The notes: generated by a model not told the origin, from the sequence alone. A stretch of DNA of 64,000 nt from Candidatus Nealsonbacteria bacterium (GCA_030601865.1 JAUWAW010000001.1:46433-110432), one strand, 5' to 3'. Numbered from the stretch's first letter, positions 38,985 to 56,155 are shown. Translations and numbers: made by a program.

Positions 38985-39328
38985 AAGCCAACTATTAATA
39001 AAGCTGGCAAGGCAAGCCAGCCAATTAAAATTACTATTCCTGCCAAAAAGAATAAAACTTCTATTAAAAGACCAATGACGATTAAAAAGCTTCTCATCAC
39101 CGCGCCGATAAGACGGGTAATCATATTAAAAGTGAAGGTCTCGAAATATCTCTTCAAATCTAATCCTCGGCCATAAGAGGAGCGGTATCTTCGCCAAGGA
39201 GAAAAAAGAGTTCTCAAAAGCAAGCCCATAGAAAAATATTTCAAATTAAAAGCAAGGAAATTCTTCCAAGCTTTTAAAATTGCCCTGGGCACATCAAAAA
39301 AATGCCATTCTAAATATTTAATCAACAT
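38960..39328 (-). CDS. Hypothetical membrane protein
   Basis: 122-aa hydrophobic ORF overlapping the clp start. Weak support. Confidence 0.3.
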   Translation of the reverse strand: MLIKYLEWHFFDVPRAILKAWKNFLAFNLKYFSMGLLLRTLFSPWRRYRSSYGRGLDLKRYFETFTFNMITRLIGAVMRSFLIVIGLLIEVLFFLAGIVILIGWLALPALLIVGLCLGLILI

Positions 39329-40485
39329 AATTGCTTAGTTATTTTATTGTAGCACATTTGAATTAATTTCTTAATATCTATATTTTTCTCTGCTCTTTCT
39401 ACTTCTTTTAGATTGGCTTTGGTTGTTGGATGCTTTGGTAAGAATCTAACGCAGCAGTCCTGGTCCGGCAAAATGGAAATTTCAAAAGTATTGATTTGTC
39501 TTGCCATTTTAATTATCTCTTGTTTGTCCTGACCAAGCAAAGGCCTTAAAATTGGCAGGTCTGTTACTTGCTCAATAACTTTTATATTCTCTAAAGTTTG
39601 CGAAGCCACTTGGCCAATACTCTCTCCGGTAACAACGGCCAGACATTTTTCTTTTTTGGCGACTTCTTGAGCAATTCTGAACATCATCCGACGATACAAA
39701 ATCACTCTTAATTTGGCCGGGGTTTTAAGTAGAATTTCCTTCTGGATACCGGCAAAAGGCGCTAAATAAAGTTTTGAACCCTGCTGAAATTTGTCTAAAA
39801 CCTTGACTATTTTCTGGACTTTTTCAATTGATGCCTTGTTTGTGTAAGGATAGGCGTGAAAGTGCAGGAAAATTATGGCCACTCCCCTTTTGAGCATTAA
39901 AAAAGCAGCCACTGGAGAGTCAATGCCACCTGATAAAAGAGTCACTGCTTTTCCGCTGACGTTGACGGGCAAGCCACCCTGCCCCTTTATTCTTTCTGTA
40001 TATAAAAAGGCAAACTTCTCTACTATTTCAATAAATAAAGTAATATCCGGGTTCTCCAAATCAACTTTTTTCTTTAATTTCTTTAAAATTTCTGCCCCCA
40101 CTTGTTCATTAATCTCTGTTGAGGTTAATAGAAACTCTTTTTTTGACCGTTGCGTGGCAATTTTAAAAGTTTTAAATTTTTGAGTTTTCAAAACTTCAAG
40201 CGCTTTCTTTTTTATTTCGCCAATTTTTTGTGGGCAGTCTACGGCAAAAGCAAAATAAGCAATGCCAAAGACATTTTTTAATACCCCGGCAATTTTTTTT
40301 CCCTCTCCACTGCCCTTCTCACTTATTTTAACCAAAAGCCGTCCTGAAATCCTTTTAACAAATTCAAAAAACTCTGGCCTTAGCGCCTTTTTAATGTTCT
40401 CCACCAACTTTTCCTCAAAAAACCGCCGATTTTTCCCTTTCAACCCAATCTCTGCGTAGTGACAAATAATATACTCCATTAGCAT
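39322..40485 (-). CDS. thiI: tRNA 4-thiouridine synthase ThiI (THUMP + PP-loop, no rhodanese domain)
   Basis: PP-loop SGGIDSPVAAFLMLKRG with an N-terminal THUMP-like region. Confidence 0.8.
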   Translation of the reverse strand: MLMEYIICHYAEIGLKGKNRRFFEEKLVENIKKALRPEFFEFVKRISGRLLVKISEKGSGEGKKIAGVLKNVFGIAYFAFAVDCPQKIGEIKKKALEVLKTQKFKTFKIATQRSKKEFLLTSTEINEQVGAEILKKLKKKVDLENPDITLFIEIVEKFAFLYTERIKGQGGLPVNVSGKAVTLLSGGIDSPVAAFLMLKRGVAIIFLHFHAYPYTNKASIEKVQKIVKVLDKFQQGSKLYLAPFAGIQKEILLKTPAKLRVILYRRMMFRIAQEVAKKEKCLAVVTGESIGQVASQTLENIKVIEQVTDLPILRPLLGQDKQEIIKMARQINTFEISILPDQDCCVRFLPKHPTTKANLKEVERAEKNIDIKKLIQMCYNKITKQLC

Positions 40486-40488
40486 ATT

Positions 40489-41640
40489 TTAACATATAAT
40501 TATTCCGCCGCCTAAAAGTTTTTCTCCTTTATAGAAAACCACTGATTGACCCGGGGTGACGGCGCGTTGGGGCTTGGCAAAAATTACTTTACAGCGCCTG
40601 CCCGCTATTTTTTTTATTGCTTCAACTTCAATTACTGGCGAACGATACCTTATTTTCGCTTTTATCCCAACTATTGGAGTTGAACTCCAATAGTTTGAAA
40701 TCCAGTTAACATCTTTGACAATCAATTCTTTTTTTTCCAAATGTTTTTCGTTCTTGGTGACAATTAAAGCATTATTTTTGACATCCTTGTCTAAAACATA
40801 GTATGGACCTCCGGCAAGCCCTATCCCCTTTCGCTGACCAATAGTATAAAACCACAACCCCTGATGCTCGCCAATACTACGAGAACAGTTCTCGTAGTAT
40901 TCTAAGATGGGGCCAGGATTTGTTTTAAGATGTTTTCTCAAAAATTCCTCTGTTGTTTTTTTAATAAAGCAAACTTCTTGAGATTCTCTGGCTTCAAGTA
41001 CCGGCAAGTCAAACTCCTTGGCCATCTGTCTTACTTGTCTTTTGGTGTAATCCCCAATGGGAAACAAAATGTGTTTTAATTGTTTCTGGCCCAACTGCCA
41101 TAAAAAATATGATTGATCTTTTTCTTTATCTTTTGCTCTTACCAATGTGTAATTTTGTATTTTTGTGTCAGAATTCTGCGACCTGCCCGTAATGCTTCGC
41201 ATAGCGATACAGGCGGGTCGCAGGATTTTGACACAGTTTAGATCTTTATTTGTATTTTCACATTTACGCGCATAGTGGCCAGTGGCAATAAAATCTGCGT
41301 CCAAGCCCAAGGCTTTTTTCAATAAAAGTCCAAATTTTATTTCTTTGTTGCAGACCACACAAGGGTTGGGGGTTCTGCCTCTTTTATATTCTTTCAAAAA
41401 ATAATTAATGATTTTTCTCTTAAACTCTTTTCTTAAATCCAAAACCAAAAATGGAATGCCTAATTTTTTAGCAATTTTTCTGACTCTTCTCTCACTTTCT
41501 CTGAAATGAGACGACTCATAAAGTTTCATAAAAACTCCTGTTACATTAAAATTAGCCCTTTTAAGAAGGGCTGCTGCTACCGAACTATCCACGCCACCGG
41601 ACATCGCCACTATTACCTTATTTTTTCTTTTTGCTTTCAT
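40489..41640 (-). CDS. mnmA: tRNA-specific 2-thiouridylase MnmA (carries two in-frame palindromic inserts)
   Basis: PP-loop VIVAMSGGVDSSVAAALL and the catalytic Cys regions. The inserts are at 41164..41235 and 40874..40900. Confidence 0.85.
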   Translation of the reverse strand: MKAKRKNKVIVAMSGGVDSSVAAALLKRANFNVTGVFMKLYESSHFRESERRVRKIAKKLGIPFLVLDLRKEFKRKIINYFLKEYKRGRTPNPCVVCNKEIKFGLLLKKALGLDADFIATGHYARKCENTNKDLNCVKILRPACIAMRSITGRSQNSDTKIQNYTLVRAKDKEKDQSYFLWQLGQKQLKHILFPIGDYTKRQVRQMAKEFDLPVLEARESQEVCFIKKTTEEFLRKHLKTNPGPILEYYENCSRSIGEHQGLWFYTIGQRKGIGLAGGPYYVLDKDVKNNALIVTKNEKHLEKKELIVKDVNWISNYWSSTPIVGIKAKIRYRSPVIEVEAIKKIAGRRCKVIFAKPQRAVTPGQSVVFYKGEKLLGGGIIIC

Positions 41641-42007
41641 GGTCCTTGATGGCTGATTTAAGGGCTGTTTCGGCTAATCGGATACAATGAAGTTTTGGTT
41701 TGGGAACTTCGCCCACTTGTTCAGCAATATCGTCAAAAGTAATCTTCTTTGCCTGTTTCAACGTCTTGCCTTCTGCCAAAGCGCAAATCATATCTGAAAT
41801 GGCTATGGCGTGTCCGCATCCGAGCGTTTCAAATTTTGCCTCTTTAATACGTTCTTTTCCATCCTTTTTTTCTACTTTGATATAAATTTTCATCACGTCG
41901 CCACACCTCAAATTTTGGGTATCCCCTACTCCATTTGCATCTTTAATCTTGCCCAAGTGTCTGGGGTGTAAAAAATGCTCCATTATTTTTTTTGAGTAAT
42001 AAACCAT
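41618..42007 (-). CDS. iscU: Fe-S cluster assembly scaffold (IscU/NifU-like)
   Basis: MEHFLHPRHLG...LRCGDVMKIYIKV...LGCGHAIAISDM. Confidence 0.8.
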   Translation of the reverse strand: MVYYSKKIMEHFLHPRHLGKIKDANGVGDTQNLRCGDVMKIYIKVEKKDGKERIKEAKFETLGCGHAIAISDMICALAEGKTLKQAKKITFDDIAEQVGEVPKPKLHCIRLAETALKSAIKDHESKKKK

Positions 42008-42011
42008 AAAA

Positions 42012-43142
42012 TTAATATCTTCCCGAAATCTTTCTCAGCCGTTTTATAACCTCGGGTAAGATTTTTAAAACATAGTCAATTTCCTGTTTTGTCGTATACC
42101 TCCCCAAGGTTAATCTCAAAGAACCATGGGCTTGTTCTGGAGTAAGCCCCAAAGCTAAAAGCACATGAGAGGGCTCTAAGCTTCTTGTAGAACAAGCCGA
42201 GCCAGTGGAGGCGGCAATTCCCTCCTGGTCCAAAGCAATCACCATACTTTCTCCTTCTGCGCCTTCAAAAGTAACATTAACATTGTTGGCAAGGCGATAT
42301 TCTCTTGAGCCATTTAATTTTGAGTTGGGAATTTTTTCTAAGATGCTGTCAATGAGTTTGTCGCGCAGTTCTTGGGTTTTGGGGATGTTGGGGATGTTAG
42401 GGATTTGGCTAATGGCAGTGCCCAAACCAACAATTCCAGCTACGTTCTCGGTGCCAGAGCGCATTCCGTGTTCTTGATTTCCACCATAGATTAAAGGTCT
42501 AATTGAAGTGCCCTTTTTAATATACAAAGCGCCGATTCCTTTGGGTCCGTAAATCTTGTGGGCAGACAAAGTCAAAAGGTCAACACCTAATTTTTGCACA
42601 TCACAATCTAAATAATTTACTGCCTGCACTGCATCAGTATGAAATAGAATTTTTGAGTTTTTTAATAACTTACCAATTTCAGCAATTGGCTGGATACTGC
42701 CGATTTCATTGTTGGCATACATTACAGAAACTAAAACTGTGTTTTCTTTAATGGCTTTCTCAACATCAGAAACTTTAACTATCCCTTCTTTACCTACCGG
42801 CAAATAAGTAACTTCTACTCCTTCCTTTTCTAATGCTTCACAAGGTTCAAAAACTGCGTGATGCTCAATTTTGGTTGTAATGATATGTGAAGGACTTATT
42901 CCAAAAATGGCTAAGTTGTTTGCCTCGGTGGCTGAGCCGGTAAAAACAATTTCTGAAGGAGAACAACTCAAAAAACCGGCCACTCTTTCTCTGGCTTTAT
43001 CAACTGCCATTTGAGCTTTTTGACCGAAATTATGAATTGAAGAAGGATTGCCGCATTCCTCTTTCAAATACGGCAACATCTCCTTCAAAACCTTAGGGTC
43101 AACCGGTGTGGTCGCCGCGTAATCAAGATAAATTGGCTTCAT
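42012..43142 (-). CDS. iscS: Cysteine desulfurase (IscS/NifS family)
   Basis: The PLP-lysine region SAHKIYGPKGIGALYIKKG and an active-site loop with GSACS. Contains an in-frame tandem IPNIPNIPK repeat. Confidence 0.85.
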   Translation of the reverse strand: MKPIYLDYAATTPVDPKVLKEMLPYLKEECGNPSSIHNFGQKAQMAVDKARERVAGFLSCSPSEIVFTGSATEANNLAIFGISPSHIITTKIEHHAVFEPCEALEKEGVEVTYLPVGKEGIVKVSDVEKAIKENTVLVSVMYANNEIGSIQPIAEIGKLLKNSKILFHTDAVQAVNYLDCDVQKLGVDLLTLSAHKIYGPKGIGALYIKKGTSIRPLIYGGNQEHGMRSGTENVAGIVGLGTAISQIPNIPNIPKTQELRDKLIDSILEKIPNSKLNGSREYRLANNVNVTFEGAEGESMVIALDQEGIAASTGSACSTRSLEPSHVLLALGLTPEQAHGSLRLTLGRYTTKQEIDYVLKILPEVIKRLRKISGRY

Positions 43143-43234: not shown

Positions 43235-45313
43235 ATGATGACTAAGAAAGCATTAATTTTTTCTTTCTTTGTTTTAGGGCTAACCTCGCTTCTCAGTCAA
43301 GTTATGATTCTGCGGGAATTAACCGTGAGTTTTTACGGTAATGAATTTTTTATTGGTTTGGTTTTAGCTTCCTGGTTGGCCTGGGTGGCGGTGGGCAGCG
43401 GGCTGGGAGGAAAACTCTTAAACAAAATTAAGGAAACCTCGGGTCTTTTAATCAGCCTTTACTTCTTAGTTGGACTTTTCTTTTTTTTGGAAATATTTTT
43501 AATTAGGTTTTTAAAGGGATGGATCGGGATGCCCGGAGAAATTCCCAATTTAATCATAGCCGGTCTAACTGCTTTATTAACTCCTGCCCCGCTCTGTTTA
43601 CTTTTGGGTTTGTGGTGGACCTGTGCCACCAGAATGTTTTCCCAGGGAAAAGCTCAACTTGTTAATCGCGCCTATTTCATAGAAACCCTGGGCTTTATTT
43701 TAGGTGGCATTTTGTTTAGCCTTTTTTTGGTCAATCTCCAGTTTCCCTGGATGGCTAACTTTCAATTCAAAGGACAAAACTTATTAGAATCAGTCAATTC
43801 TCCTTACGGCAATATTGCTGTAACTAAAATTGGGGAACAATATAATTTTTATGAAAGTGGATTGCTTTTGGGCTCTGAAGAAGAAATTCAATTTTCAGAA
43901 GATTTAATCCACCTTTCCCTTTTACAACATCCTTCTCCTCAAAAAGTTCTTTTAATTGGCAATGGTTTTAATGGGGCTGTAAATGAGATATTGAAACACC
44001 AGCCAGAAAAAATTTATTATTTAGAACTTGACCCAAAATTAATTGAACTTTCCCAAAAATATATCTCTCAAGAATTTAAAGAAGTATTGACTCATCCAGC
44101 TGTAAAAATTATCAATACTGATGGCCGTTATTTTCTTCAAGGAACTAAAGAAAAATTTGATGCCATTTTGCTTAATTTACCAGACCCCTCAACCGCTTTA
44201 ATTAATCGCTTTTACACACAAGAGTTTTTTGAAAAAGCAAAAGAGAAATTAGCCCCAAACGGGATTTTTGCTACCTATCTTACCTTCTCCCCCAGCACTC
44301 CGGGTAAAAATTTAGAAAACCTTAATGCTTCCATATTTAGAACCTTAAAAAAAGTTTTCAATCAAGTAATTGTTTTGCCGGAAGAAACCAATTTCTTTTT
44401 GGCTTCCCAGAACGAAAATTTGACTTACAATTTTGAAATCTTGATTCAAAGATTTGAACAAAGGAATATTGAAACTAAATTTCTTACTAAAGAATATATA
44501 ACTTATCGTCTGTCTAATGATAGGATTGAAAAGACACTGGCTTTGTTTGAAAAAAATGAAAAAGCTAAAGAAAATAAAGATTTCAAACCCATTGCTTATT
44601 TTTACCAGACCCTATTTTGGTTAGACCGTTTTTACCCTCAATTTTCTAATTTTTTTAAACAGTTGGTTTCTGCTTTTTGGTTAGTATTTGCTGGCGCTTT
44701 AATATTTTTAACCCTGCTTTTGCTTAAAAGAAGAAAAGGTTGGAGAAAAAACTTTTCTCTATTATCTGTAGCTATAGCTGGATTTTCTTTAATGGCCTTG
44801 GAAATAATAATTATTTTCAGTTATCAAATAACCATTGGTTATCTTTATTACCGAATCGCTTTGTTGATTGCTGCCTTAATGGCAGGCATGGCCCTTGGTG
44901 TTTGGTATGGAAATAAGAAAGGGCGACCACACAAGGTCGCCCCTACATTCCATTTATTATTAATAATGTTCTGTGTAATCTTATTTTTAGCATTTCCTTT
45001 TCTTTCAAAAATTCCTTCTGGTCTGACAGCAGAAATTATCTTTTTAATTTGTGCAGGTGTGGCTGGATTTTTAGGAGCGGCTATTTTTTCCTTTGCCAAC
45101 CAACTATATCTTTCTTCTCAATCGGACCCTCATAAAAAAACCGGCACCATCTACGCAGTAGATTTAGCCGGTTCTTGTTTTGGAGCCCTATTGCCCGGTT
45201 TAATTCTTATCCCGGTTTTCGGCGTTTTCCAAACCTTAATTGTTATTGCCTTGGCCAACCTCTGGATAGTATTAATTTTCTTGGGGTTTAATACGGGCGA
45301 TTTTTCTTTTTAG
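43235..45313 (+). CDS. Membrane-embedded spermidine synthase-like (polyamine aminopropyltransferase) protein with N- and C-terminal multi-TM regions
   Basis: Central SpeE-like domain (VLLIGNGFNGAVNEIL...YYLELDPKLIELS...DAILLNLPDP) flanked by hydrophobic segments. The start is probably 43235; the annotated 43106 overlaps iscS. Confidence 0.65.
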   Translation: MMTKKALIFSFFVLGLTSLLSQVMILRELTVSFYGNEFFIGLVLASWLAWVAVGSGLGGKLLNKIKETSGLLISLYFLVGLFFFLEIFLIRFLKGWIGMPGEIPNLIIAGLTALLTPAPLCLLLGLWWTCATRMFSQGKAQLVNRAYFIETLGFILGGILFSLFLVNLQFPWMANFQFKGQNLLESVNSPYGNIAVTKIGEQYNFYESGLLLGSEEEIQFSEDLIHLSLLQHPSPQKVLLIGNGFNGAVNEILKHQPEKIYYLELDPKLIELSQKYISQEFKEVLTHPAVKIINTDGRYFLQGTKEKFDAILLNLPDPSTALINRFYTQEFFEKAKEKLAPNGIFATYLTFSPSTPGKNLENLNASIFRTLKKVFNQVIVLPEETNFFLASQNENLTYNFEILIQRFEQRNIETKFLTKEYITYRLSNDRIEKTLALFEKNEKAKENKDFKPIAYFYQTLFWLDRFYPQFSNFFKQLVSAFWLVFAGALIFLTLLLLKRRKGWRKNFSLLSVAIAGFSLMALEIIIIFSYQITIGYLYYRIALLIAALMAGMALGVWYGNKKGRPHKVAPTFHLLLIMFCVILFLAFPFLSKIPSGLTAEIIFLICAGVAGFLGAAIFSFANQLYLSSQSDPHKKTGTIYAVDLAGSCFGALLPGLILIPVFGVFQTLIVIALANLWIVLIFLGFNTGDFSF

Positions 45314-46321
45314 TTTTTTGTTGGCTCGATACTCCCCTATCTTTCTCTTTCTTGCCTCGGTCCATCTATCCAAGCCAAGCAGTTTTGACTTGAAAATCCA
45401 AATGGCTGAGAAAGCTATGGCCAAAGGCAGCAAAACAGAATCTAAAATTGTGTTACCTATGCCGGTACTAACTTCAGTAGGAAGTCCGGCTGCTTGAGCA
45501 ACAGGCACACCAACGAACCTTCCCTGCACCATAACTTTACAACTATTGCTGCGAGAGAGGTAATTTGTATAAACTAAGGCAACGGTGATTAAATTATTTG
45601 TGCCATAACCTAAATTCTCTATTGAGGCAACTTTTGCTTCAAAAGTGATTGTTTTCGTCTGCTCAGATAATAAATTGCCTACATTAATGGCTCGAGAACT
45701 AATATTGCGAGTATTAGAAACACCGTCTATCCTCAAATTGTCTTGATAGCTTATATTTGGTGGTAAATTTGCTTTGACCTTTATATTTTGAGCTTTAATA
45801 TTACTGGTTGATTCAAGCCTTATCTTAAAAAGTAATTGGTCAAAAGGCTCGGCTTTCAAAGAGTCATACCAAACTGTATCTCCTCTGGAGAGATTCTTGA
45901 CAGATGTTTTAACACTAAAAGAGGGGCATTTGGTGGTAAATGTCTTGTCTTCCCCATAACCATTCTTTTTAGTGTTATTTTGAGCTACAGCCCGAAAATG
46001 ATATTGGGTGCAGGGAGATAAACCAGAAAGATTCACTGAGAAAGCGCCGATATGCCTTCTTTCTTCCACTGGTGTTGTGCGGCCGTAAGAGGTGTTTTTG
46101 CCATATTGAAACCAAAGTTTTAAGTCCACGCACCCGCCATCGTCAGTCACATCACCTCTCAAAAGAACCGAAGATAAAGTAATATTAGTGGCTGAGCGCG
46201 TGACTACCGTAGCGCGCACCACCATAGCAAAAACACAGATTGGGACAAGTAATCCCAAAATGAGTAAAAAGACAAATTGAGTTTTCGAGTTTCTTTGTTT
46301 TTTAACCAGATATTTATTCAT
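45272..46321 (-). CDS. Secreted surface protein with Fn3-like repeat and C-terminal LPXTG-type sorting signal (LPTEVS + hydrophobic segment + basic tail)
   Basis: N-terminal signal/TM. The C-terminus is LPTEVSTGIGNTILDSVLLPLAIAFSAIWIF followed by a Lys/Arg-rich tail. Sits next to a sortase gene. Confidence 0.55.
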   Translation of the reverse strand: MNKYLVKKQRNSKTQFVFLLILGLLVPICVFAMVVRATVVTRSATNITLSSVLLRGDVTDDGGCVDLKLWFQYGKNTSYGRTTPVEERRHIGAFSVNLSGLSPCTQYHFRAVAQNNTKKNGYGEDKTFTTKCPSFSVKTSVKNLSRGDTVWYDSLKAEPFDQLLFKIRLESTSNIKAQNIKVKANLPPNISYQDNLRIDGVSNTRNISSRAINVGNLLSEQTKTITFEAKVASIENLGYGTNNLITVALVYTNYLSRSNSCKVMVQGRFVGVPVAQAAGLPTEVSTGIGNTILDSVLLPLAIAFSAIWIFKSKLLGLDRWTEARKRKIGEYRANKKLKRKIARIKPQEN

Positions 46322-46350
46322 TGTTTTTAGGTTTTTAAGTTTTTAGGTTT

Positions 46351-46950
46351 TTAGTCTAACACTGCCTCCACGGCAATTCTGTAAAGGTCTTTACCCGGAG
46401 GCCAGCAACTTAATAAGATTAACACGGACTTAGAGTTTGTCAACCCGGAAGGAAGCTCCTCTCCTCGGTCAAGGAAAAACTTGTTGGTCACCCGGTAAAC
46501 ATATTGACGGTTATTAAAACAAACATAAATTTCATCTCCTTCAGCTAACTTATTCAAATCAGTAAAAATTCTATCATAATTGATATCAGGCCAGCCCTCA
46601 GGTGCGCTGTGGCCTAAAATTATTGCTCTACCCTGCTCTCCGGGCAAAGCGGAATCCGGGTAATGCAGAACTCCTTCTTTTAGATATTTTTGAAAATCTT
46701 TGTTGTCAGTGCTTTCGGTAAAAACAATGGGGGCTTCCTCCTCAATTTTAGGGATTGAAATAGTATTTTCTAAAACAGTGCTCTCATTTTCAAAGCTATC
46801 AGGTTCTTGTGTTTGCAGCTTGCCATAAATAACTTTGTAATTAAAAAACAAGGAAATCTCCTGCCAATTTATAATCAAAAAAACCACCAGAAATATAAAA
46901 ACAAAGGGTTTCCAGAACTTTTTAATTGCCTCTGTAAAATTCATTAGCAT
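46351..46950 (-). CDS. Sortase family transpeptidase
   Basis: N-terminal TM and a catalytic region with ILGHSAP... and the C-terminal LILLSCWP (TLxTC-type Cys). Confidence 0.65.
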   Translation of the reverse strand: MLMNFTEAIKKFWKPFVFIFLVVFLIINWQEISLFFNYKVIYGKLQTQEPDSFENESTVLENTISIPKIEEEAPIVFTESTDNKDFQKYLKEGVLHYPDSALPGEQGRAIILGHSAPEGWPDINYDRIFTDLNKLAEGDEIYVCFNNRQYVYRVTNKFFLDRGEELPSGLTNSKSVLILLSCWPPGKDLYRIAVEAVLD

Positions 46951-47028: not shown

Positions 47029-48833
47029 TAACTTCTAAGGAGTTTCAGGTATATTTCCTCGGGAATAGGGGTGCGGCCGTGTTTTTGGAGAATTTTTTTG
47101 CCTTTGCGTTGTTTGACTAAGAGTTTCTTTTTGCGGGTAAAGTCGCCGCCGTACAGGGGCGCGGTCACATCCTTGCGCAGGGCGCGGATATCCTCACGCG
47201 CGATTATTTTGCCGCCAATTTGGGCTTGAAGCGATTGGGTAAAGTTTTTTGGAGGCAGGACATCCTTTAATCTTTTGAGAAACTGACGCGCCTGCTTGCG
47301 CGCCGCGTCTTTATAAACAATGCGCGAGAAACAGGGCTTCAGTTCGCGCGAAACCAAAAACTCAAGTTTAATAAGGTCGCTTTTTTTATACTCGTCAAAT
47401 TCGTAACTAAAGGAAGCGAACCCCTTGCTAATGCTTTTCAGTTTGTCTAAAAAATCCTCAATAATCTCAGCAAGCGGCGCATAAAACTCTAAAAGCAAGG
47501 TATCTTTATCTAAAACTTGCGAGGAAATAAACTTGCCTCGTTTCTGCTCAACTAATTCATGGATTTTGCTGTTGTGTCTGGTCGGGCTGACAATGTTTAA
47601 TTTAACCCAGGACTCCGCTATATAGTCAATCTCGCCCTGGTCCGGCAGTTCTGCGGCCGAATGGACTAAAATCGGCTCTTTTTGCTTTTTTGTCTTTACC
47701 TTGAAAACAACCGAAGGAGAAGTAAGAACCACTTGGGTGCCATACTCCCGCTTTAACCTTTCCATGGTGATTTCCAGATGAAGCATACCTAAAAAGCCGA
47801 TGCGCAGTCCCCTGCCTAAATAAGGATTGCTCATAGGTTTGGCTGTGAGAGAAGTGTCGTTGAGCCGCAGTTTGTCAAAATTGGCTTTCAGGGTTTCAAA
47901 GTTTTGGCCTTGCCCTTGCCCCTGCCCCGGAAAAACATTGGCAAAAACCAATGGCTTGGGCTCTTTATAGCCAGGCAGGCGAGGACAGTCCTCGCCTGAT
48001 TTGGTTGTTATTGTCTCGCCGATTCTGACGTCTGAAACGTTTTTTATGCCCGTGGCGATGTAGCCGATTTGGCCGGCTATTAGTTTTGGCACAGGACTAC
48101 GTTGCGGTATGAAAATGCCGACTTCTCTTGTTTCGGCGCGGACTTTTTGATTGACAAAATAAATTTGGTCGCCTTTTTTGATTTCGTTGCCAAACAGCCG
48201 CACATAGGCAATTACTCCCTGAAAATTGTCGTAAATTGAATCAAAAACCAGGGCTTTTAATACTCCTCCGCCCTCTGTTTTTGGCTGCGGCGCCTGCTTT
48301 ATCAACGCTTCAAGAACTTTCTCTATATTCTCGCCTGTTTTGGCGGAAATAGTTAAAATTTCCCCTGAATCAATACCTAAAAGATTGGCTAATTCCTGCT
48401 TAACTTTTTCTAATTGCTCCTCGCTCGGACAAACATCTATTTTATTGATAACCGGTATTATTTTCAAACTCTGCGCCTGCGCCAGGCGCAGATTAGCCAG
48501 GGTCTGTGCCTGAATGCCTGAAACCACGTCAACCAATAAAATAACACATTCAACAGCGGCCAAAGACCGTTCTACTTCATAGGAAAAATCCATATGGCCA
48601 GGCGTGTCAATCAAGTTTAATTGGTACTTGCGGCCGGCCAGACCATACTCCATTGCACAGGGCTGCATCTTGATAGTGATGCCGCGCTCTCTTTCCAAAT
48701 CCATCTGGTCCAAAACCTGTTCGCGCATCTGCTCTTTCTTCAAGGTGTTGGTAATTTCCAAAAACCGGTCAGCCAGAGTTGATTTGCCGTGGTTTATATG
48801 CGCGATTATAGAGAAATTTCGTATATTTCCCAT
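47028..48833 (-). CDS. lepA: Elongation factor 4 (LepA)
   Basis: G-domain IIAHINHGKSTLADR and DTPGHMDF, and the LepA C-terminal domain. Visibly GC-richer than its neighbours, and contains a GQGQGQ insert. Confidence 0.9.
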   Translation of the reverse strand: MGNIRNFSIIAHINHGKSTLADRFLEITNTLKKEQMREQVLDQMDLERERGITIKMQPCAMEYGLAGRKYQLNLIDTPGHMDFSYEVERSLAAVECVILLVDVVSGIQAQTLANLRLAQAQSLKIIPVINKIDVCPSEEQLEKVKQELANLLGIDSGEILTISAKTGENIEKVLEALIKQAPQPKTEGGGVLKALVFDSIYDNFQGVIAYVRLFGNEIKKGDQIYFVNQKVRAETREVGIFIPQRSPVPKLIAGQIGYIATGIKNVSDVRIGETITTKSGEDCPRLPGYKEPKPLVFANVFPGQGQGQGQNFETLKANFDKLRLNDTSLTAKPMSNPYLGRGLRIGFLGMLHLEITMERLKREYGTQVVLTSPSVVFKVKTKKQKEPILVHSAAELPDQGEIDYIAESWVKLNIVSPTRHNSKIHELVEQKRGKFISSQVLDKDTLLLEFYAPLAEIIEDFLDKLKSISKGFASFSYEFDEYKKSDLIKLEFLVSRELKPCFSRIVYKDAARKQARQFLKRLKDVLPPKNFTQSLQAQIGGKIIAREDIRALRKDVTAPLYGGDFTRKKKLLVKQRKGKKILQKHGRTPIPEEIYLKLLRS

Positions 48834-50434
48834 TAATATTCTTCTTCAAAGATTTGGGCGGTGAAAGTGTAGAGGTCAATATCTTCTTCTTTCCAGCAGT
48901 CCCAGGGCAGACCGACTTTTTGAAAGCAAAGTTCTCCCATAAATTTTTCTAAATCCCAATTATTGTCAGTAGCTACTTGGGGCAGAAAAACACCATTTCT
49001 CAAGCCCTTTCTAATTTGCACGCCGTGTTTGCCAATCTCAATTCCCTGCCAATTATCAATTTTCTCTAAGGGACTCAAAACCGAAATTTCATAGTCAAGC
49101 TCACCAAGTTCATCCTCTCCCACAGGATAAAATCTTTTATCCTGGGTGGCAGCCGCAATGGCCATTTGAGAAACAACTTGATACAGAGGTATGTCAGTGG
49201 GTGAAAAACGGCCAATGCAGCCCCGTAGCTGGCTCTGCTTCTTTAAAGTAACAAAAGCACCCAAGTTTTGATTTAATATGGATTCTTCAACTTGAAATTC
49301 TGGAATTTTACCTTCTTTGACAAAAGTTTCAACTGAATTCTTAGCGATTTCCAAAAGTTTTTCTTGCTCTGTTTTCTTTAATAAATGACTCTGTCTTGGT
49401 CCAAAAAAGCCAATGGCTGCATAGCCAACCACTTGCGATTTATCACCTATGGGCACGTCTCCGGAATTGGCATATTTTAATAATTTAATTTCTTCAGCAG
49501 CCAATTCTTTGGCTACTAACATGATTGTTTTGATAGCATCTTCTGCGCAAACAAAAGTTACTGCTCCAGGAATATTCTCTTTTTCCAAGTCCTGAATTGT
49601 TTTTTCTAACTCCCCTACCCTACCGGTTAAAATGGCTTCAATGGTTTTGCTATCTGCCTGTTGAGCATCACCATAGCTAGGATAATGCGACAAATCAGAA
49701 CTGGCAATCAGTAAAATATTCTTACCTCTGATATTTTTAACAATGGCTTGAGCTAAAATTTTGTAATCTTCTTCTGGGCTGTTGCCCAAAATAATGGGTA
49801 CAATCCGTGGTACGTGCACGGACAAAGGAGATCCTTCGGCCTTCGGCCTCAGGATGACTTGCAAAAAAGGTAATTCCACCTCAAGGGAATGCTCTCTTTG
49901 ATGAACACTCTCTCTGAAAAAAATTCTTTCGTTTTCTGCAATAATTTTTTCAGCTAATTGAGAATCTATTTCTACTTCTCCTAAGGGAGTTTTATAAAAA
50001 CCTCGTGGGAAAATAGAAATACCTTCAAATCTCTCATAATGGCTGTTGCCAATAAGAATCACCGTAGCAAATTGGTTCAAATCGTGACGATCGTCATAAC
50101 TTGAACCACCCATCAGTTGCTTAAAGCCGTAGGCGGCCACGGGGCCAGAAAATGGATAGCCAGCATGGGGCAGAACTAAAGCAAAAATCTCGCCTTCGGT
50201 TTCTGGCGGACTTGCCTTTTCCAAAAATTGGTCAATCATTTTCTCTAACTCCTCAGGGTCTCCAGGATAAAATTGTCCAGCCACTGCCGGCTGCCGAATT
50301 ATTTTTTCTTCTTTTTCAAAAACGTCTGAAACCATAGCTTTTTGAGAAATATCTTCCCCTCCCTTAAATATTAAAAGTATACTAATCGCACCAACAACAA
50401 AAATTAATAAAGCTATTATTAGAACTTTCTTCAT
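48833..50434 (-). CDS. Fusion of AmmeMemoRadiSam system protein B (MEMO1-like) and protein A (AMMECR1 domain), with N-terminal signal/TM anchor
   Basis: MEMO-like motifs (ALVLPHAGYPFSGPVAAY; the SSDLSHY region) in the N-terminal half. The C-terminal half has the AMMECR1 motif GAFVTL...LRGCIG. Confidence 0.7.
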   Translation of the reverse strand: MKKVLIIALLIFVVGAISILLIFKGGEDISQKAMVSDVFEKEEKIIRQPAVAGQFYPGDPEELEKMIDQFLEKASPPETEGEIFALVLPHAGYPFSGPVAAYGFKQLMGGSSYDDRHDLNQFATVILIGNSHYERFEGISIFPRGFYKTPLGEVEIDSQLAEKIIAENERIFFRESVHQREHSLEVELPFLQVILRPKAEGSPLSVHVPRIVPIILGNSPEEDYKILAQAIVKNIRGKNILLIASSDLSHYPSYGDAQQADSKTIEAILTGRVGELEKTIQDLEKENIPGAVTFVCAEDAIKTIMLVAKELAAEEIKLLKYANSGDVPIGDKSQVVGYAAIGFFGPRQSHLLKKTEQEKLLEIAKNSVETFVKEGKIPEFQVEESILNQNLGAFVTLKKQSQLRGCIGRFSPTDIPLYQVVSQMAIAAATQDKRFYPVGEDELGELDYEISVLSPLEKIDNWQGIEIGKHGVQIRKGLRNGVFLPQVATDNNWDLEKFMGELCFQKVGLPWDCWKEEDIDLYTFTAQIFEEEY

Positions 50435-50482
50435 CTTGGTTTTGTATTATACCTTCTTAAAGGGGATTAGCCAATACCTCTT

Positions 50483-51595
50483 TTATTCCCAAACACCAGG
50501 GATTTTTTCGCCATCGGAGCATTGGCCGTTTTGGAGGTTGTTTTGGGTGACAAAAAAGCCTTGCCTGACAATGGCCGGCTCTCCTGATTCAGGGCAAAAG
50601 GTGGTGCTGCCTTCGGGGTCGTAAATGTTGCCGGTGTAAACATATTTCAGGCCATACTCCTGAGCCATTTGCCGGGCTTTCTGCAAGGTCTCAATAGGAG
50701 TGGGAGGCAGATTAAGTAACTTGTAATCAGGATGAAAACGGGTAAAATGCAAAGGGATATCTGTGCCCAGATTTTCTTTAATCCATAAAATTAAATTTCT
50801 GAAATCTTCTTCCCGGTCGTTTTCTGTGGGAATAACCAAATTGACAATTTCCAGCCAGACACCTTGTTCCTTGATAATCTTCATTGCTTCCAAAACAGGC
50901 CCCACATGGCCAGCTGTCATTTCCTGATAAAATTTGTCATCAAAGCCCTTAAAGTCAATTTTGTAAGCATCAATGTAGGGCAAAAGGTCTCTTAAGGGTT
51001 CGGGGTTAATGTAGCCAGCGCTAATAACCACATTTTTCAAACCGTTTTCATGCGCCAATAGAGCAATGTCTAACATATATTCGTAAAAAGCAGTTGGTTC
51101 AGTATAAGTAAAAGCAATTGATTGGGCGCCTGATTTTAAGGCCTTTTCCACCACTTGTTGGGGCGTCATTTTTATTGATGACACCTCCCAAGGGAAAACC
51201 TGGGCAATCTGCCAGTTTTGGCAAAATTTACACTGCAAATTGCAGCCGGTAGTGGCAATAGAATAAGTTTTAGTGCCGGGCAGAAAATGATAAAGCGGTT
51301 TTTTCTCAATGGGGTCAAGGTGTGAGGCAACAATTTGCCCGTAAACTATGGAGTAAAGTTCTCCCTCTATATTCTTTTTGGCTCGGCAAATCCCAATTTG
51401 ACCCTCAGATAAAATACATCTATTGGGACAAAGATTACATCTCACCATTTTACTGCCCAATTTCTCATAGTACTTGGCTAAATGTAAATCTTGGGGAGTA
51501 ACCCCTCCCCCGCGCTCTCTACCCCAAATAAGAAACACAGCCAAACCAACAATGATGATTAAAAATATAATGGCGCCTATCTTTGCTTTAAGCAT
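50483..51595 (-). CDS. AmmeMemoRadiSam system radical SAM enzyme with N-terminal TM anchor
   Basis: CNLQCKFCQNW (CxxxCxxC), with upstream Cys-rich CNLCPNRC...C. The N-terminus is a hydrophobic helix. Confidence 0.7.
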   Translation of the reverse strand: MLKAKIGAIIFLIIIVGLAVFLIWGRERGGGVTPQDLHLAKYYEKLGSKMVRCNLCPNRCILSEGQIGICRAKKNIEGELYSIVYGQIVASHLDPIEKKPLYHFLPGTKTYSIATTGCNLQCKFCQNWQIAQVFPWEVSSIKMTPQQVVEKALKSGAQSIAFTYTEPTAFYEYMLDIALLAHENGLKNVVISAGYINPEPLRDLLPYIDAYKIDFKGFDDKFYQEMTAGHVGPVLEAMKIIKEQGVWLEIVNLVIPTENDREEDFRNLILWIKENLGTDIPLHFTRFHPDYKLLNLPPTPIETLQKARQMAQEYGLKYVYTGNIYDPEGSTTFCPESGEPAIVRQGFFVTQNNLQNGQCSDGEKIPGVWE

Positions 51596-51609
51596 AAAAC
51601 CCTTTTATT

Positions 51610-51645
51610 TGTGTCAAAATCCTGCGATCGCAGGATTTTGACACA
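51610..51645. terminator. 36-bp perfect palindrome TGTGTCAAAATCCTGCGATCGCAGGATTTTGACACA (family B copy), intergenic
   Basis: Perfectly self-complementary. The identical sequence occurs at 56120..56155, and an expanded variant lies inside mnmA. Confidence 0.6.
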
Positions 51646-51651
51646 GTTTTA

Positions 51652-51966
51652 CTACAAAAAATAGAGATAAAATAAGAATATCAGAATAACTAAACTCAAG
51701 ATAATAACATAAATATTTGTCCATTTTTCGTCCTTGAGCCATCTTCTCAGGGTGAATTTAAGATAAATAAAAACATGCAAAATAAAGAATATAATGAAAG
51801 GAATGGGCAGCCATTTATCGTGCAGTTTCTCTGCTAAAACCGGGTCCATAATGCCTTTGGTCATACCATAACCAGAAATAAAATACAACATCATCAGTAA
51901 AGCCAAAACATAGCCAGAAAACCTGGCTGTTTTAATGAGAATTCTATTGATTTGAGTCTTGTCCAT
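51652..51966 (-). CDS. Small hypothetical membrane protein (3 predicted TM)
   Basis: 104-aa hydrophobic ORF in an operon-like arrangement. Confidence 0.35.
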   Translation of the reverse strand: MDKTQINRILIKTARFSGYVLALLMMLYFISGYGMTKGIMDPVLAEKLHDKWLPIPFIIFFILHVFIYLKFTLRRWLKDEKWTNIYVIILSLVILIFLFYLYFL

Positions 51967-51983
51967 AAATTTAATGCAAATGT

Positions 51984-52610
51984 TTAACTTACGATGTTAA
52001 ACATATTATAAATAGCGTAGGCGAAAAATAGAGTTCCGACAATCAAAGCGGCAATTCGGCCTACCAACTGGAATTCTTTCATTTTATTCAAATAGCCCAA
52101 AAAAACAAGGGGCAGGAAATACAGGGTTGTGCCCAAAAAAAACATTAAAAAATAAACTATACCTTTCAAGGCGCTGTGGAGCGTAAAGACATAGGTTAAA
52201 GACATTAAAAAGGGCGGGCAGATATTGACTCCCATTAAAAAACCCATCAAAAGCGGTATTTTAGCATTGTATTTTTTGATTTTGTGACAAAAACTAAACC
52301 TCTTCCATTTCATCAAGCCCAAAGCATGCAGAATTAAAATAAGAGAAAGCAACATTAAAGCGACCATTAAAATAAGATTGAGGACTTGGTTATTAATCCT
52401 CTGCCCCAAATAGCCAAAGACAGCTCCAAAAGTTACGTAGCCGAGCAATCTGCCAAAAATGAATTTAAGAATAACGAAAAGGTTCTCCCTCCTTCCCCGC
52501 GCCTCGGCAATCATCATTGGAGCAACAAAGGGGATACAGAAAGTTAGACAATATATGCCTGCTGACAGCCCTAAAAGAAATGGTGAAATAAAAATCTCTG
52601 ACATAAGCAA
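51984..52610 (-). CDS. Polytopic membrane protein, CcdA/DsbD-like or TauE/SafE-like (uncertain)
   Basis: About 6 TM. Has a CxxxC pair (CLTFC) in TM1 and a CPP motif in a later TM, reminiscent of CcdA-type thiol-disulfide transporters. Confidence 0.35.
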   Translation of the reverse strand: MLMSEIFISPFLLGLSAGIYCLTFCIPFVAPMMIAEARGRRENLFVILKFIFGRLLGYVTFGAVFGYLGQRINNQVLNLILMVALMLLSLILILHALGLMKWKRFSFCHKIKKYNAKIPLLMGFLMGVNICPPFLMSLTYVFTLHSALKGIVYFLMFFLGTTLYFLPLVFLGYLNKMKEFQLVGRIAALIVGTLFFAYAIYNMFNIVS

Positions 52611-52729
52611 TATCTACTTTCATTTTAAGCAATTTTTTGCTAAAATCAAAGGGAGAGGGCCCGTAGCCCCTCACCCAGATTGCTCTGCGCTTTGCGCAAA
52701 TTTGTTGAAAACAGGGCAATCTGGGTGAG

Positions 52730-52803
52730 GGGCCTATAGTATAATGGCATTACACCGCATTCGCATTGCGGAAATGTGAGTTCGATTCTCGCTGGGTCCA
52801 CCA
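52730..52803 (+). tRNA. tRNA-Ala (anticodon CGC), CCA encoded
   Basis: Hand-folded: acceptor GGGCCUA pairs with UGGGUCC including the G3:U70 alanine identity pair. Anticodon stem CCGCA/TGCGG with loop TTCGCAT, T-arm GTGAG-TTCGATT-CTCGC, then discriminator A and CCA. The D-arm is unusually short. Confidence 0.7.
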
Positions 52804-56119: not shown

Positions 56120-56155
56120 TGTGTCAAAATCCTGCGATCGCAGGATTTTGACACA
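56120..56155. terminator. 36-bp perfect palindrome (family B copy) between dnaB and recR
   Basis: Identical to 51610..51645. Confidence 0.6.

Follow-up and report, generated by a model that had tools for sequence, protein, structure and literature searches.

Does an AmmeMemoRadiSam system whose proteins begin with membrane segments act at the membrane, and if so on which face? Canonical systems of this kind (TIGR04335-04337) are soluble and cytoplasmic. We analyzed a 64,000-nucleotide stretch of DNA (hereafter the window) from the small-genome bacterium Candidatus Nealsonbacteria, for which the original prediction was a membrane-anchored AmmeMemoRadiSam operon. Sequence comparisons lead us to regard it as reasonably probable that this is an AmmeMemoRadiSam variant tethered to the membrane and facing outward (extracytoplasmic), with a dedicated transmembrane reductant supply.

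The AmmeMemoRadiSam genes and their N-terminal segments

Four open reading frames of the module were confirmed within 48833-52610, all on the minus strand: genes for a DsbD_2-family six-helix membrane protein matching PF13386 (51984-52610), a small protein of 104 aa with three hydrophobic helices (51652-51966), a 370-aa AmmeMemoRadiSam radical SAM (rSAM) enzyme (50483-51595), and a 533-aa Memo-AMMECR1 fusion (48833-50434). The rSAM and fusion genes are separated by 48 nt on the same strand, and their order is also present in at least 30 related loci. Between the small-protein and rSAM genes stands a perfect 34-bp palindrome (51611-51644; no strand assigned), with an identical second copy at 56121-56154 (2 exact copies versus 0 expected); as RNA, it would form a hairpin of -26.6 kcal/mol (z -6.5) without a U-tract.

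Profile searches bore out the predicted MEMO, AMMECR1, and radical SAM domains. The rSAM enzyme scored 376.9 bits on TIGR04337 (cutoff, 220), residues 47-341 of the fusion (49412-50296) scored 242.6 bits on TIGR04336 (cutoff, 26), and residues 359-529 (48848-49360) scored 166.4 bits on TIGR04335 (cutoff, 99). With all three models above their cutoffs, the locus is by sequence an AmmeMemoRadiSam system. The rSAM CxxxCxxC motif corresponds to C118/C122/C125, and additional N-terminal cysteines occur at positions 53, 56, 60, and 70. Across 26 sequences, the Memo metal-site residues H90, H132, D247, H250, and C296 are invariant, as are R404, G405, C406, and G408 of the AMMECR1 RGCIG site; the AMMECR1 half aligns to PH0010 at 1e-33.

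The AF2 model of the fusion has a mean pLDDT of 86.7, with low confidence confined to the linker and two inserts in the Memo half, which are the sole disordered loops within domains. Both inserts are in-frame, one of about 10 aa (GGSSYDDRHD; 50081-50110) and the other of about 11-13 aa (KAEGSPLSVHVPR; 49805-49843), and both are missing from the 25 homologues compared. The prediction of two palindromic inserts held insofar as they are real and their DNA contains short palindromes; they gave no match as copies of a repeated element within the window and are ordinary, lineage-specific loop insertions. The fusion itself had been taken as a special feature of the locus, which it is not: at least 7707 homologues exist, JGI labels them "protein B/protein A," and the Memo-AMMECR1 fusion was noted in 2007 (PMC2034487); it is both common and already annotated.

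The predicted N-terminal transmembrane segments are present on both proteins, at residues 4-22 of the fusion (50369-50425) and residues 6-24 of the rSAM enzyme (51524-51580). Among homologues of 50-78% identity, the hydrophobic N terminus of the fusion is kept in 108/120, and the rSAM helix is retained together with a "FLIYxREK" motif in 116/120. The window's own N termini contain no AxA site, lipobox, or RR motif in either protein: the fusion (start, MKKVLII) has no Tat S/T-R-R-x-F-L-K motif and no cysteine ahead of residue 296, and the rSAM enzyme (start, MLKAKIGAII) has no twin-arginine motif.

Relatives of both proteins bear export signals. An export signal or anchor sequence was found at the N terminus of 71 of 78 related fusion proteins, with 7 having none; by class, orthologues from 80 genomes of many phyla comprised 26 with a lipobox cysteine, 5 with RR motifs, and 42 with another signal peptide or anchor. 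To our knowledge, lipoproteins are always extracytoplasmic. Four rSAM orthologues (L040, L044, L045, and L068) have canonical S/T-R-R-x-F-L-K signals; one of them, L044, reaches 375.8 bits against TIGR04337. Among 80 rSAM relatives from a broader metagenome sampling, 38 have twin-arginine N termini and 34 begin with a hydrophobic signal or anchor of non-Tat type, in many cases with an AxA-like cleavage site. Our literature search turned up no account of a radical SAM enzyme being exported. These orthologue signals strengthen the exported or redox-handled context proposed originally. The claim that the system acts at the membrane stands with respect to the tethers and was understated, as the lipoprotein, Sec-type, and twin-arginine signals of orthologues point to the outer face.

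The membrane proteins encoded with the system

The DsbD_2 protein has 208 aa from a TTG start; an ATG lies two codons further downstream, and this ATG (52604) is the probable true start. It matches PF13386 at an E value of 6e-23, gave no PF02683 match in the profile search, and had no sequence match in the PDB. The CcdA-like cysteine placement was confirmed: Cys21 and Cys25 (TM1, CxxxCxP), Cys108, and Cys131 (TM4, CPP) are kept in 21/21 aligned orthologues, which comprise two arrangement types. The gene occupies the same position in six CPR contigs (L082-L087), and neither the window's module nor those contigs encode a thioredoxin-like client or thioredoxin-fold gene within the module.

Neighbor and fusion patterns in relatives support the original assignment of both upstream membrane proteins to the system, and we found the five-gene module again in independent CPR, Omnitrophota, Verrucomicrobiota, and Lentisphaerota contigs. 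Over metagenome and genome loci combined, a DsbD_2 gene adjoins 43/57 non-Tat rSAM genes versus 0/42 Tat-type genes. The respective fractions are 22/34 versus 0/38 in metagenomes (Fisher, 3e-10) and 21/23 versus 0/4 in genomes (Fisher, 9e-4), all of these tests ignoring shared ancestry. The association is common to two gene orders and two DsbD_2 subfamilies, and adjacency to signal-less rSAM genes was 0/5.

The small protein belongs to no Pfam or NCBIfam family (no Pfam match at E ≤ 1 beyond noise) and is represented by 185 clusters in a 1.84-billion-protein library. His49 is kept in 117/117 members and His64 in 116/117. The K+R content is 3.4 in the N-tail, 2.2 in loop 1, and 3.55 in loop 2, with the N-tail and loop 2 exceeding loop 1 in 117/117 members, and the predicted topology is N-in/C-out. 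In one cluster (P0135) and six others, the small protein and the rSAM enzyme form a single polypeptide; in these natural fusions, the positively charged loop 2 of the small protein joins the rSAM helix directly, which together with the K+R bias would put the rSAM domain across the membrane from the positive loops. Other relatives are fused to a Cyt-b5 domain (PF00173), and a tandem relative (P0269) aligns over the whole of PF01292 at a subthreshold 24.5 bits (gathering score, 30.1). The top 10 Foldseek hits were all SdhC/SdhD, none significant (E, 1.4-3). From these subthreshold matches, the small protein is a candidate haem-b-type electron-transfer subunit. It is present in only 5/13 type-A genome loci and absent from many otherwise complete modules.

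A fifth conserved component, which the original prediction did not include, is by sequence a 12-TM "fused MFS/spermidine synthase"-like protein encoded on the plus strand at 43238-45313. It matches PF01564 (E, 1.3e-25) and NF037959 (50 bits; cutoff, 40) and has five predicted TM helices before and seven after a 309-aa soluble domain, which a crude charge bias puts outside. In the window, lepA, a sortase gene, and a surface-protein gene stand between it and the module. Counterparts in three CPR contigs (L082, L084, and L086) share 45-49% identity with it in alignments covering 98% of its length and converge directly on the fusion gene. A gene of this type adjoins 15/27 signal-bearing rSAM loci and 26/72 metagenome loci. 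No earlier description appears to exist of a link between such a protein and exported rSAM enzymes.

Sidedness of the catalytic domains

We infer how the window's own proteins sit in the membrane, including an outward rSAM domain, from simple charge and hydropathy rules. The rSAM helix has a net charge of +2.14 in its N flank versus +0.16 in its C flank; the N flank is the more positive in 103/117 homologues and the reverse holds in 3, and for the fusion helix these numbers are 76 and 23. In the model that we favor, the fusion and the rSAM enzyme would each be inserted by an N-terminal signal-anchor in an N-in/C-out orientation, leaving the catalytic domains exposed at the outer surface of the cytoplasmic membrane. 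The DsbD/CcdA-like protein would use its TM1 and TM4 cysteines to carry reducing equivalents through the membrane, keeping the many cysteines of the exported proteins reduced as CcdA does for apocytochrome c; we propose that this pairing exists because the window's rSAM enzyme crosses by a non-Tat route, unfolded. The small protein would dock on the rSAM anchor helix, to which it is fused in some genomes, and it probably holds a haem b that offers a second route for electrons. The 12-TM protein may be an additional partner, perhaps one that deals with SAM or a compound derived from it. Catalytic domains on the outer face would in turn imply that the substrate is an envelope or outer-leaflet molecule, which would narrow the search for it.

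Several considerations count against the outward-facing reading. We know of no Fe-S protein that is exported unfolded and then receives its clusters on the far side of the membrane. Both SAM and reductants of low potential belong to the cytoplasm, the locus has no established SAM exporter, and thiol-disulfide exchange lacks the reducing power that a [4Fe-4S]2+ cluster requires if SAM is to be cleaved. The missing RR motif on the window's rSAM enzyme, the missing PF02683 match, and the missing thioredoxin-like client weigh on the same side. We extend the reading only tentatively, as one that may well not hold, to a whole rSAM clade including the window's enzyme, whose members would work outside the membrane either Tat-exported and folded or, like the window's, Sec-anchored and then matured or kept reduced by a DsbD-like conduit, here with the help of a small haem-type protein, the 12-TM partner taking part in SAM handling. 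If true, radical SAM chemistry would be seen outside the cytoplasm for the first time, and the molecule on which the Memo/AMMECR1 system acts would belong to the cell envelope.

An unlikely but serious alternative is a split topology, in which an N-out/C-in anchor keeps the rSAM domain cytoplasmic and only Memo-AMMECR1 lies outside. Either an rSAM-modified substrate would then be exported by the DsbD_2/LysE-type or 12-TM protein, or the rSAM enzyme would mature Memo-AMMECR1 ahead of its export, in the manner of anaerobic sulfatase-maturating rSAM enzymes. SAM, reductant, and Fe-S assembly would all be available in the cytoplasm with none needed outside, the enzyme is PflA-like and so of a family acting on protein substrates, and type-A rSAM anchors have no RR motif. 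Furthermore, a signal-less TIGR04337 rSAM enzyme is paired with a signal-bearing fusion at five loci, so the two proteins need not share a membrane side, and two of these five fusions bear RRxFL motifs, as would suit export in the folded state. However, the charge bias is opposite to this arrangement in the 103 rSAM homologues, and the small-protein/rSAM fusions would have to place their most positive loops outside. The rSAM enzymes of close relatives themselves bear cleavable-looking Sec or canonical Tat signals, and the anticorrelation of DsbD_2 with Tat follows the rSAM signal type.

That the DsbD_2 protein is instead a LysE-superfamily transporter (of a metal, a sulfite-like anion, SAM, or a substrate or product of the system), with a structural, haem-free small protein beside it, seems to us unlikely. 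PF13386, whose members are often annotated as TauE/SafE-like exporters, includes the window protein, and PF02683 does not; a relative weakly resembles the ArsG efflux permease (34.8 bits; cutoff, 200), and the absence of a thioredoxin-like partner fits a transporter as well. Against this stand the four invariant cysteines, with a DsbD/CcdA-like Cys-x-Pro in both TM1 and TM4, and a type-B relative (L081) that exceeds the PF02683 gathering score (29.7 versus 27.1). The gene is also missing exactly where the rSAM enzyme uses Tat, which is not predicted for a substrate transporter.

We consider it very unlikely that all catalytic domains are cytoplasmic and that the N-terminal helices merely tether the enzymes to the inner face, close to a lipid substrate. 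The solubility of canonical systems and the lack of lipobox, AxA site, and RR motif in the window proteins would suit this arrangement, but it conflicts with the lipobox cysteines of 26/78 orthologous fusions, the twin-arginine signals of about 40 related rSAM enzymes, the positive N flanks of both helices, and the known relatives of the DsbD-type protein that serve the extracytoplasmic side. Lastly, gene-start artefacts masking soluble proteins have a negligible probability: the internal Met34 of the fusion does stand upstream of its domain, but the helices are conserved across homologues, the rSAM segment has a conserved sequence motif, its next methionine (M50) falls within the conserved domain (start, residue 40), and independent gene calls on other contigs include both segments.

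Comparison with known systems

Like canonical AmmeMemoRadiSam systems (TIGR04335/TIGR04336/TIGR04337), the locus has adjacent genes and keeps the CxxxCxxC motif, the Memo metal site, and the RGCIG cysteine. Unlike them, it has A and B fused, N-terminal signal-anchors on both proteins, and additional DsbD_2, small two-histidine 3-TM, and 12-TM spermidine-synthase-like proteins, and its relatives bear lipoprotein, Sec, or Tat signals. With CcdA/DsbD (PF02683 and PF13386), the DsbD_2 protein shares a six-helix LysE-superfamily fold family, a cysteine followed by proline in TM1 and TM4, and a place beside genes for exported cysteine-rich proteins. This putative conduit, as judged from its sequence, differs in that its conserved cysteines number four (CxxxC plus two) and not two, that its module has no thioredoxin-like client, and that it matches PF13386 only.

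The small protein resembles SdhC/SdhD and cytochrome b561 (PF01292) in its three helices, its invariant histidine pair, and a predicted N-in/C-out topology like that of SdhC/D, and its relatives include fusions to a cytochrome-b5 domain and the tandem form spanning PF01292. It differs from these haem-b anchors in lacking a significant match (Foldseek E > 1; PF01292, 24.5 versus 30.1), and its haem binding is putative; by functional analogy, it may be likened to MsrQ feeding periplasmic MsrP. Tat signals are expected for cofactor-loaded Fe-S proteins exported folded, such as periplasmic hydrogenase and the Fe-S subunits of the DMSO-reductase family, and related rSAM enzymes share the canonical S/T-R-R-x-F-L-K motif with these, in contrast to the window's own rSAM enzyme, which has no RR motif. 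The 12-TM protein, whose closest known counterparts are fused MFS/spermidine synthases (NF037959) and membrane-bound polyamine aminopropyltransferase-like proteins (PRK03612), passes NF037959 and PF01564, and unlike true spermidine synthases it scores far under their equivalog cutoffs (136 versus 472 bits). The trio and the B-A fusion were already known, and what our sequence comparisons with relatives suggest as new are the patterns of export signals, of DsbD_2 and Tat, of the small protein, and of the 12-TM protein.

The module and its genomic setting

The individual proteins of the module already have annotations, and AmmeMemoRadiSam is a known system, still functionally unsolved. Within it, a large clade appears to be exported and to have transmembrane redox helpers of its own. 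Because such annotations exist and the clade is so large, the window stands as one representative of it.

The module lies in one minus-strand run of five genes, encoding a DsbD_2-family membrane protein (208 aa, 51984-52610; PF13386 DsbD_2, E 6e-23), a small membrane protein (104 aa, 51652-51966), a radical SAM (rSAM) enzyme (370 aa, 50483-51595; TIGR04337 at 376.9 bits, cut-off 220), a Memo-AMMECR1 fusion (533 aa, 48833-50434) and LepA, whose gene overlaps the stop codon of the 533-aa fusion gene by 1 base (TAATG). Both the Memo and AMMECR1 Pfam families match the fusion, with TIGR04336 (Memo, protein B) covering aa 47-341 at 242.6 bits (cut-off 26) and TIGR04335 (AMMECR1, protein A) covering aa 359-529 at 166.4 bits (cut-off 99). 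The original prediction of an operon of four ORFs is confirmed at 48833-52610 on the minus strand, and all three models that it named for profile searches (TIGR04335, TIGR04336 and TIGR04337) matched above their cut-offs. The 104-aa small protein had no family match in TIGR/NCBIfam or Pfam profile searches. LepA was rejected as a functional partner because its adjacency to the module is not kept in relatives. The G+C content is about 39%, and identical module proteins also occur on a Patescibacteria-type contig.

The rSAM enzyme carries a CxxxCxxC motif (C118/C122/C125) and four N-terminal cysteines, the Memo half of the fusion retains H90, H132, D247, H250 and C296, and the AMMECR1 half retains Cys406 of RGCIG. 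The nearest solved structures were PH0010, MM0484 and ST0229 for AMMECR1, human MEMO1 for Memo and PflA for rSAM. Cys503 and Cys513 of the AMMECR1 half were considered as a redox pair specific to the exported clade, a candidate rejected because cytoplasmic archaeal homologues have both.

The Memo-AMMECR1 fusion is an already known part of the finding. At least 7707 homologues were found at E < 1e-10, and the best 120 of these all combine Memo with AMMECR1 in a protein of about 500 aa, some already named 'protein B/protein A'; the fusion was noted as early as 2007 (PMC2034487). The predicted joining of B and A in one protein is thus real but commonplace and previously known. The AlphaFold model of the fusion (mean pLDDT 86.7) is confident except for the linker (aa 25-41) and two loops (aa 111-115 and 199-206), which are insertions unique to the window protein among 26 aligned homologues. 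The description of these Memo inserts as palindromic holds for the insertions and for the short palindromes in their DNA, but not for any repeat copies in the window; with each insert unique there, we rejected them as mobile palindromic elements and regard them as ordinary insertions in loops.

A perfect 34-bp palindrome (GTGTCAAAATCCTGCGATCGCAGGATTTTGACAC) is present in two identical copies, one inside the operon between the small-protein and rSAM genes (51611-51644) and the other just past dnaB (56121-56154). It gives a strong hairpin (-26.6 kcal/mol), lacks a U-tract and may be a binding site or REP-like element. Within 52611-52803, immediately upstream of the DsbD_2 gene, a plus-strand tRNA-Ala(CGC) gene is followed by an inverted repeat with 17-nt arms (CCCCTCACCCAGATTGC...GCAATCTGGGTGAGGGG), which is probably a terminator between two divergent units. 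Also near the module, a minus-strand run at 39322-43142 encoding a cysteine desulfurase (Aminotran_5), NifU_N/IscU, MnmA and ThiI reflects Fe-S and thiolation housekeeping. Among relatives, loci L084 (4451-5662) and L085 have the same five-gene module with unlike upstream flanks; in one of these flanks, an archaeal-type AdoMet synthase gene (PF01941) and a further rSAM gene immediately precede the module. The L086 module is followed by a Flavodoxin_4 gene.

Membrane tethers, export signals and topology

Both the rSAM enzyme and the fusion have an N-terminal hydrophobic helix of about 19 residues. Among the best 120 homologues of each protein, this helix is kept in 116 rSAM enzymes, where a conserved FLIYxREK motif follows it, and in 108 fusions. 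The proposed N-terminal membrane tethers are real, and the possibility that internal starts give soluble proteins fails because the helix is kept in most homologues and is followed by the motif in rSAM. The window rSAM and fusion N-termini lack both an RR motif and a lipobox. Of 117 rSAM homologues, 103 have a helix whose N flank exceeds the C flank in positive charge and 3 show the reverse (net charges of +2.14 for the N flank and +0.16 for the C flank); the N flank of the fusion helix is more positive in 76 homologues versus 23 with the reverse. From this charge bias, we infer a predicted N-in/C-out orientation for both window proteins.

An argument independent of the helix flank charges comes from natural fusions of the small protein to the rSAM N-terminus, found in seven protein clusters (442-443 aa) in which two small-protein helices are joined straight onto the rSAM helix. 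The N-tail and loop 2 of the small protein are richer in Lys+Arg than loop 1 in every member, which predicts N-in, loop 2 in and the C-terminus out. Since loop 2 runs directly into the rSAM helix in these fusions, the rSAM domain would lie outside.

We fetched 80 genome loci encoding the fusion from Patescibacteria, Omnitrophota, Verrucomicrobiota, Lentisphaerota, Planctomycetota, Chloroflexota, Zixibacteria, Clostridia and others, and judged 78 complete fusion N-termini. A lipobox ending in Cys is present in 26 of the 78 (for example, MKLLKLILLLFVIIILSAC, and MKRIVVVAMVVLVAAC followed by a Pro/Thr linker), RR motifs are present in 5 (2 of which also have a lipobox), 42 have a signal peptide or anchor of another kind, and 7 have no signal. 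Lipoproteins are exported by definition, which argues that this Memo-AMMECR1 clade is extracytoplasmic in most lineages.

Textbook twin-arginine signals were observed on rSAM enzymes of three Anaerolineae loci (L040, L044 and L045) and a Syntrophorhabdaceae MAG (L068), with N-termini such as MRQVSRREFIKGLAGLGL..., TRRQFVKWLTGLGLG... and MLSRRNFIK.... The L044 enzyme matches TIGR04337 at 375.8 bits, and these four Tat-signal enzymes are therefore true members of the family. In a wider metagenome sample of 80 loci, which was seeded with signal-bearing rSAM enzymes, 38 rSAM N-termini are twin-arginine ([ST]RRxFLK or the TKREFLK variant) and 34 are hydrophobic signals or anchors of a non-Tat kind, with AxA-like ends in many of them. 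The Tat pathway carries proteins across already folded and loaded with cofactor, as an Fe-S enzyme needs. The literature searched yielded no account of exported radical SAM enzymes.

Anaerolineae-type Tat-signal rSAM enzymes of L040, L045 and L163 have an extra N-terminal segment with CxxCH (for example, GLDCRACHGSTEPSR). CxxCH is the haem-c attachment signature; here it may have arisen by chance or may mark a metal site. In Clostridia-labelled MAGs (L055, L060 and L073), two rSAM genes adjoin a fusion with a Tat/Sec signal, the first encoding a signal-less TIGR04337 enzyme (307 bits) and the second a divergent rSAM enzyme of 370-390 aa whose N-terminal segment is Cys-rich (75.9 bits, under the cut-off).

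In a split-topology or maturase model, rSAM would instead work inside the cell and Memo-AMMECR1 outside. A non-Tat rSAM would need to acquire its Fe-S clusters outside the cell, any outside rSAM would need a source of SAM and low-potential electrons, and five loci pair a signal-less rSAM with an exported fusion. These points keep the model alive, and we consider it less likely than an outward-facing rSAM. The prediction that the system acts at the membrane stands for the tethers and can be sharpened to the reading that we favor, in which the enzymes would be membrane-anchored at the outer face and served by dedicated redox helpers.

The small protein and a spermidine-synthase-like neighbor

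The small protein is often missed by gene callers, as with the uncalled copies between the DsbD_2 and rSAM genes of L084 and L085. A word-indexed homologue search returned only 5 sequences, and an exhaustive profile search returned 185 clusters. All 117 members have His49, and 116 of them have His64. Among the 150 relatives listed, 36 exceed 190 aa (P0271-P0343), and 8 of the 10 longer relatives scanned have, beyond helix 3, a Ser/Thr/Asn-rich low-complexity linker and then a cytochrome-b5 domain (PF00173; gathering score 23.7, which six reach or exceed and two fall slightly under). These b5-bearing relatives form an apparently undescribed family of membrane-anchored proteins. Furthermore, a tandem-duplicated relative aligns along an entire prokaryotic cytochrome b561 at a score below threshold, and the ten best PDB matches of the small-protein AlphaFold model (pLDDT 84) are SdhC/SdhD haem anchors, all with E>1. 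On the basis of the conserved histidines, the b5 fusions and these sub-threshold matches, we propose the small protein as a candidate haem-b electron-transfer component. It was rejected as a universal component: it is found in 5 of the 13 type-A genome loci (DsbD_2 gene upstream, as in the window) and missing from 8, and it is thus a real but accessory component.

In most type-A loci, as well as in three independent CPR contig sets with differing other flanks, the gene that directly converges with that of the fusion encodes a fifth component of the system, a membrane protein (about 750 aa) containing a spermidine-synthase domain. The window has a 12-TM counterpart (691 aa, 43238-45313, plus strand; PF01564 and NF037959) with 45-49% identity to the products of the relatives' convergent genes over 98% of its length, encoded 3.5 kb from the module. 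Inserted between the fusion and 12-TM genes, which are directly adjacent in relatives, are lepA and, at 45272-46950, a sortase gene and a gene for a 349-aa surface protein with a weak CLIPPER domain match, an LPTEVSTG-like sorting motif, a C-terminal TM helix and a Lys/Arg-rich tail. The 12-TM protein occurs alike beside Tat-type (13/38) and non-Tat (13/34) rSAM genes of the metagenome sample. Ten loci (L093, L113, L120, L126, L129, L135, L141, L145, L148 and L161) have a signal-bearing rSAM, DsbD_2 and the 12-TM protein with neither Memo nor AMMECR1 within 3 kb, and may represent a related exported rSAM module working without them. Charge analysis of the 12-TM protein by crude segmentation (K+R of 20 versus 4) places its soluble domain outside, and we speculate that it handles SAM or a derivative outside the cell. 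No paper on fused MFS/spermidine synthases was found in the literature searched.

DsbD_2 proteins and the route of export

The DsbD_2 gene lies upstream, in the window order, in 13 genome loci, and a second DsbD_2 subfamily (type B), one member of which is also above the PF02683 DsbD_TM threshold, immediately follows the fusion gene in 8 others. Four cysteines are common to all DsbD_2 proteins compared, in CxxxCxP (TM1), one loop and CxP (TM4); the TM1 and TM4 cysteines fit the CcdA-like Cys placement first noticed in the upstream membrane protein. A PDB sequence search with the DsbD_2 protein gave no match.

DsbD_2 adjoins 21 of 27 signal-bearing rSAM genes and none of 5 signal-less ones in the genome loci. 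Its gene is adjacent to none of the Tat rSAM genes (0/38 in the metagenome set and 0/4 in the genome set) and to many with non-Tat signals or anchors (22/34 and 21/23), giving Fisher values, with shared ancestry ignored, of 3e-10 and 9e-4, respectively. The gene-neighborhood comparison thus places DsbD_2 in the system, its presence tracking the rSAM export route. This pattern would be expected if a reductant conduit were needed only for a cysteine-rich rSAM that crosses the membrane unfolded. DsbD_2 may instead be a transporter; a reductant conduit is our preferred inference.

Memo and AMMECR1, which are linked to human disease, show conservation from archaea to humans, and to our knowledge no reaction has been established for either of them or for their radical SAM partner in prokaryotes. 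In the literature searched, the function of AmmeMemoRadiSam received incidental mentions only. The abstract of Burroughs et al. 2019 is said to link Memo to nucleotide-base and aliphatic isoprenoid modification, and some contexts reported here may already be described in that work.

The main points of our finding are the predicted extracytoplasmic radical SAM chemistry and a testable rule relating DsbD_2 to Tat. If the system is exported, its substrate should be reachable from the outer membrane face, and SAM and electrons would have to reach radical SAM chemistry outside the cell, a supply that we have not seen described before. A need for the DsbD-like protein should likewise arise only in enzymes that Tat does not export, and the DsbD_2-Tat anticorrelation is a simple prediction, genetically testable in cultivable Verrucomicrobiota, Planctomycetota or Desulfobacterota. 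As a reductant conduit, DsbD_2 would have a role resembling that of CcdA, which keeps apocytochrome c reduced.
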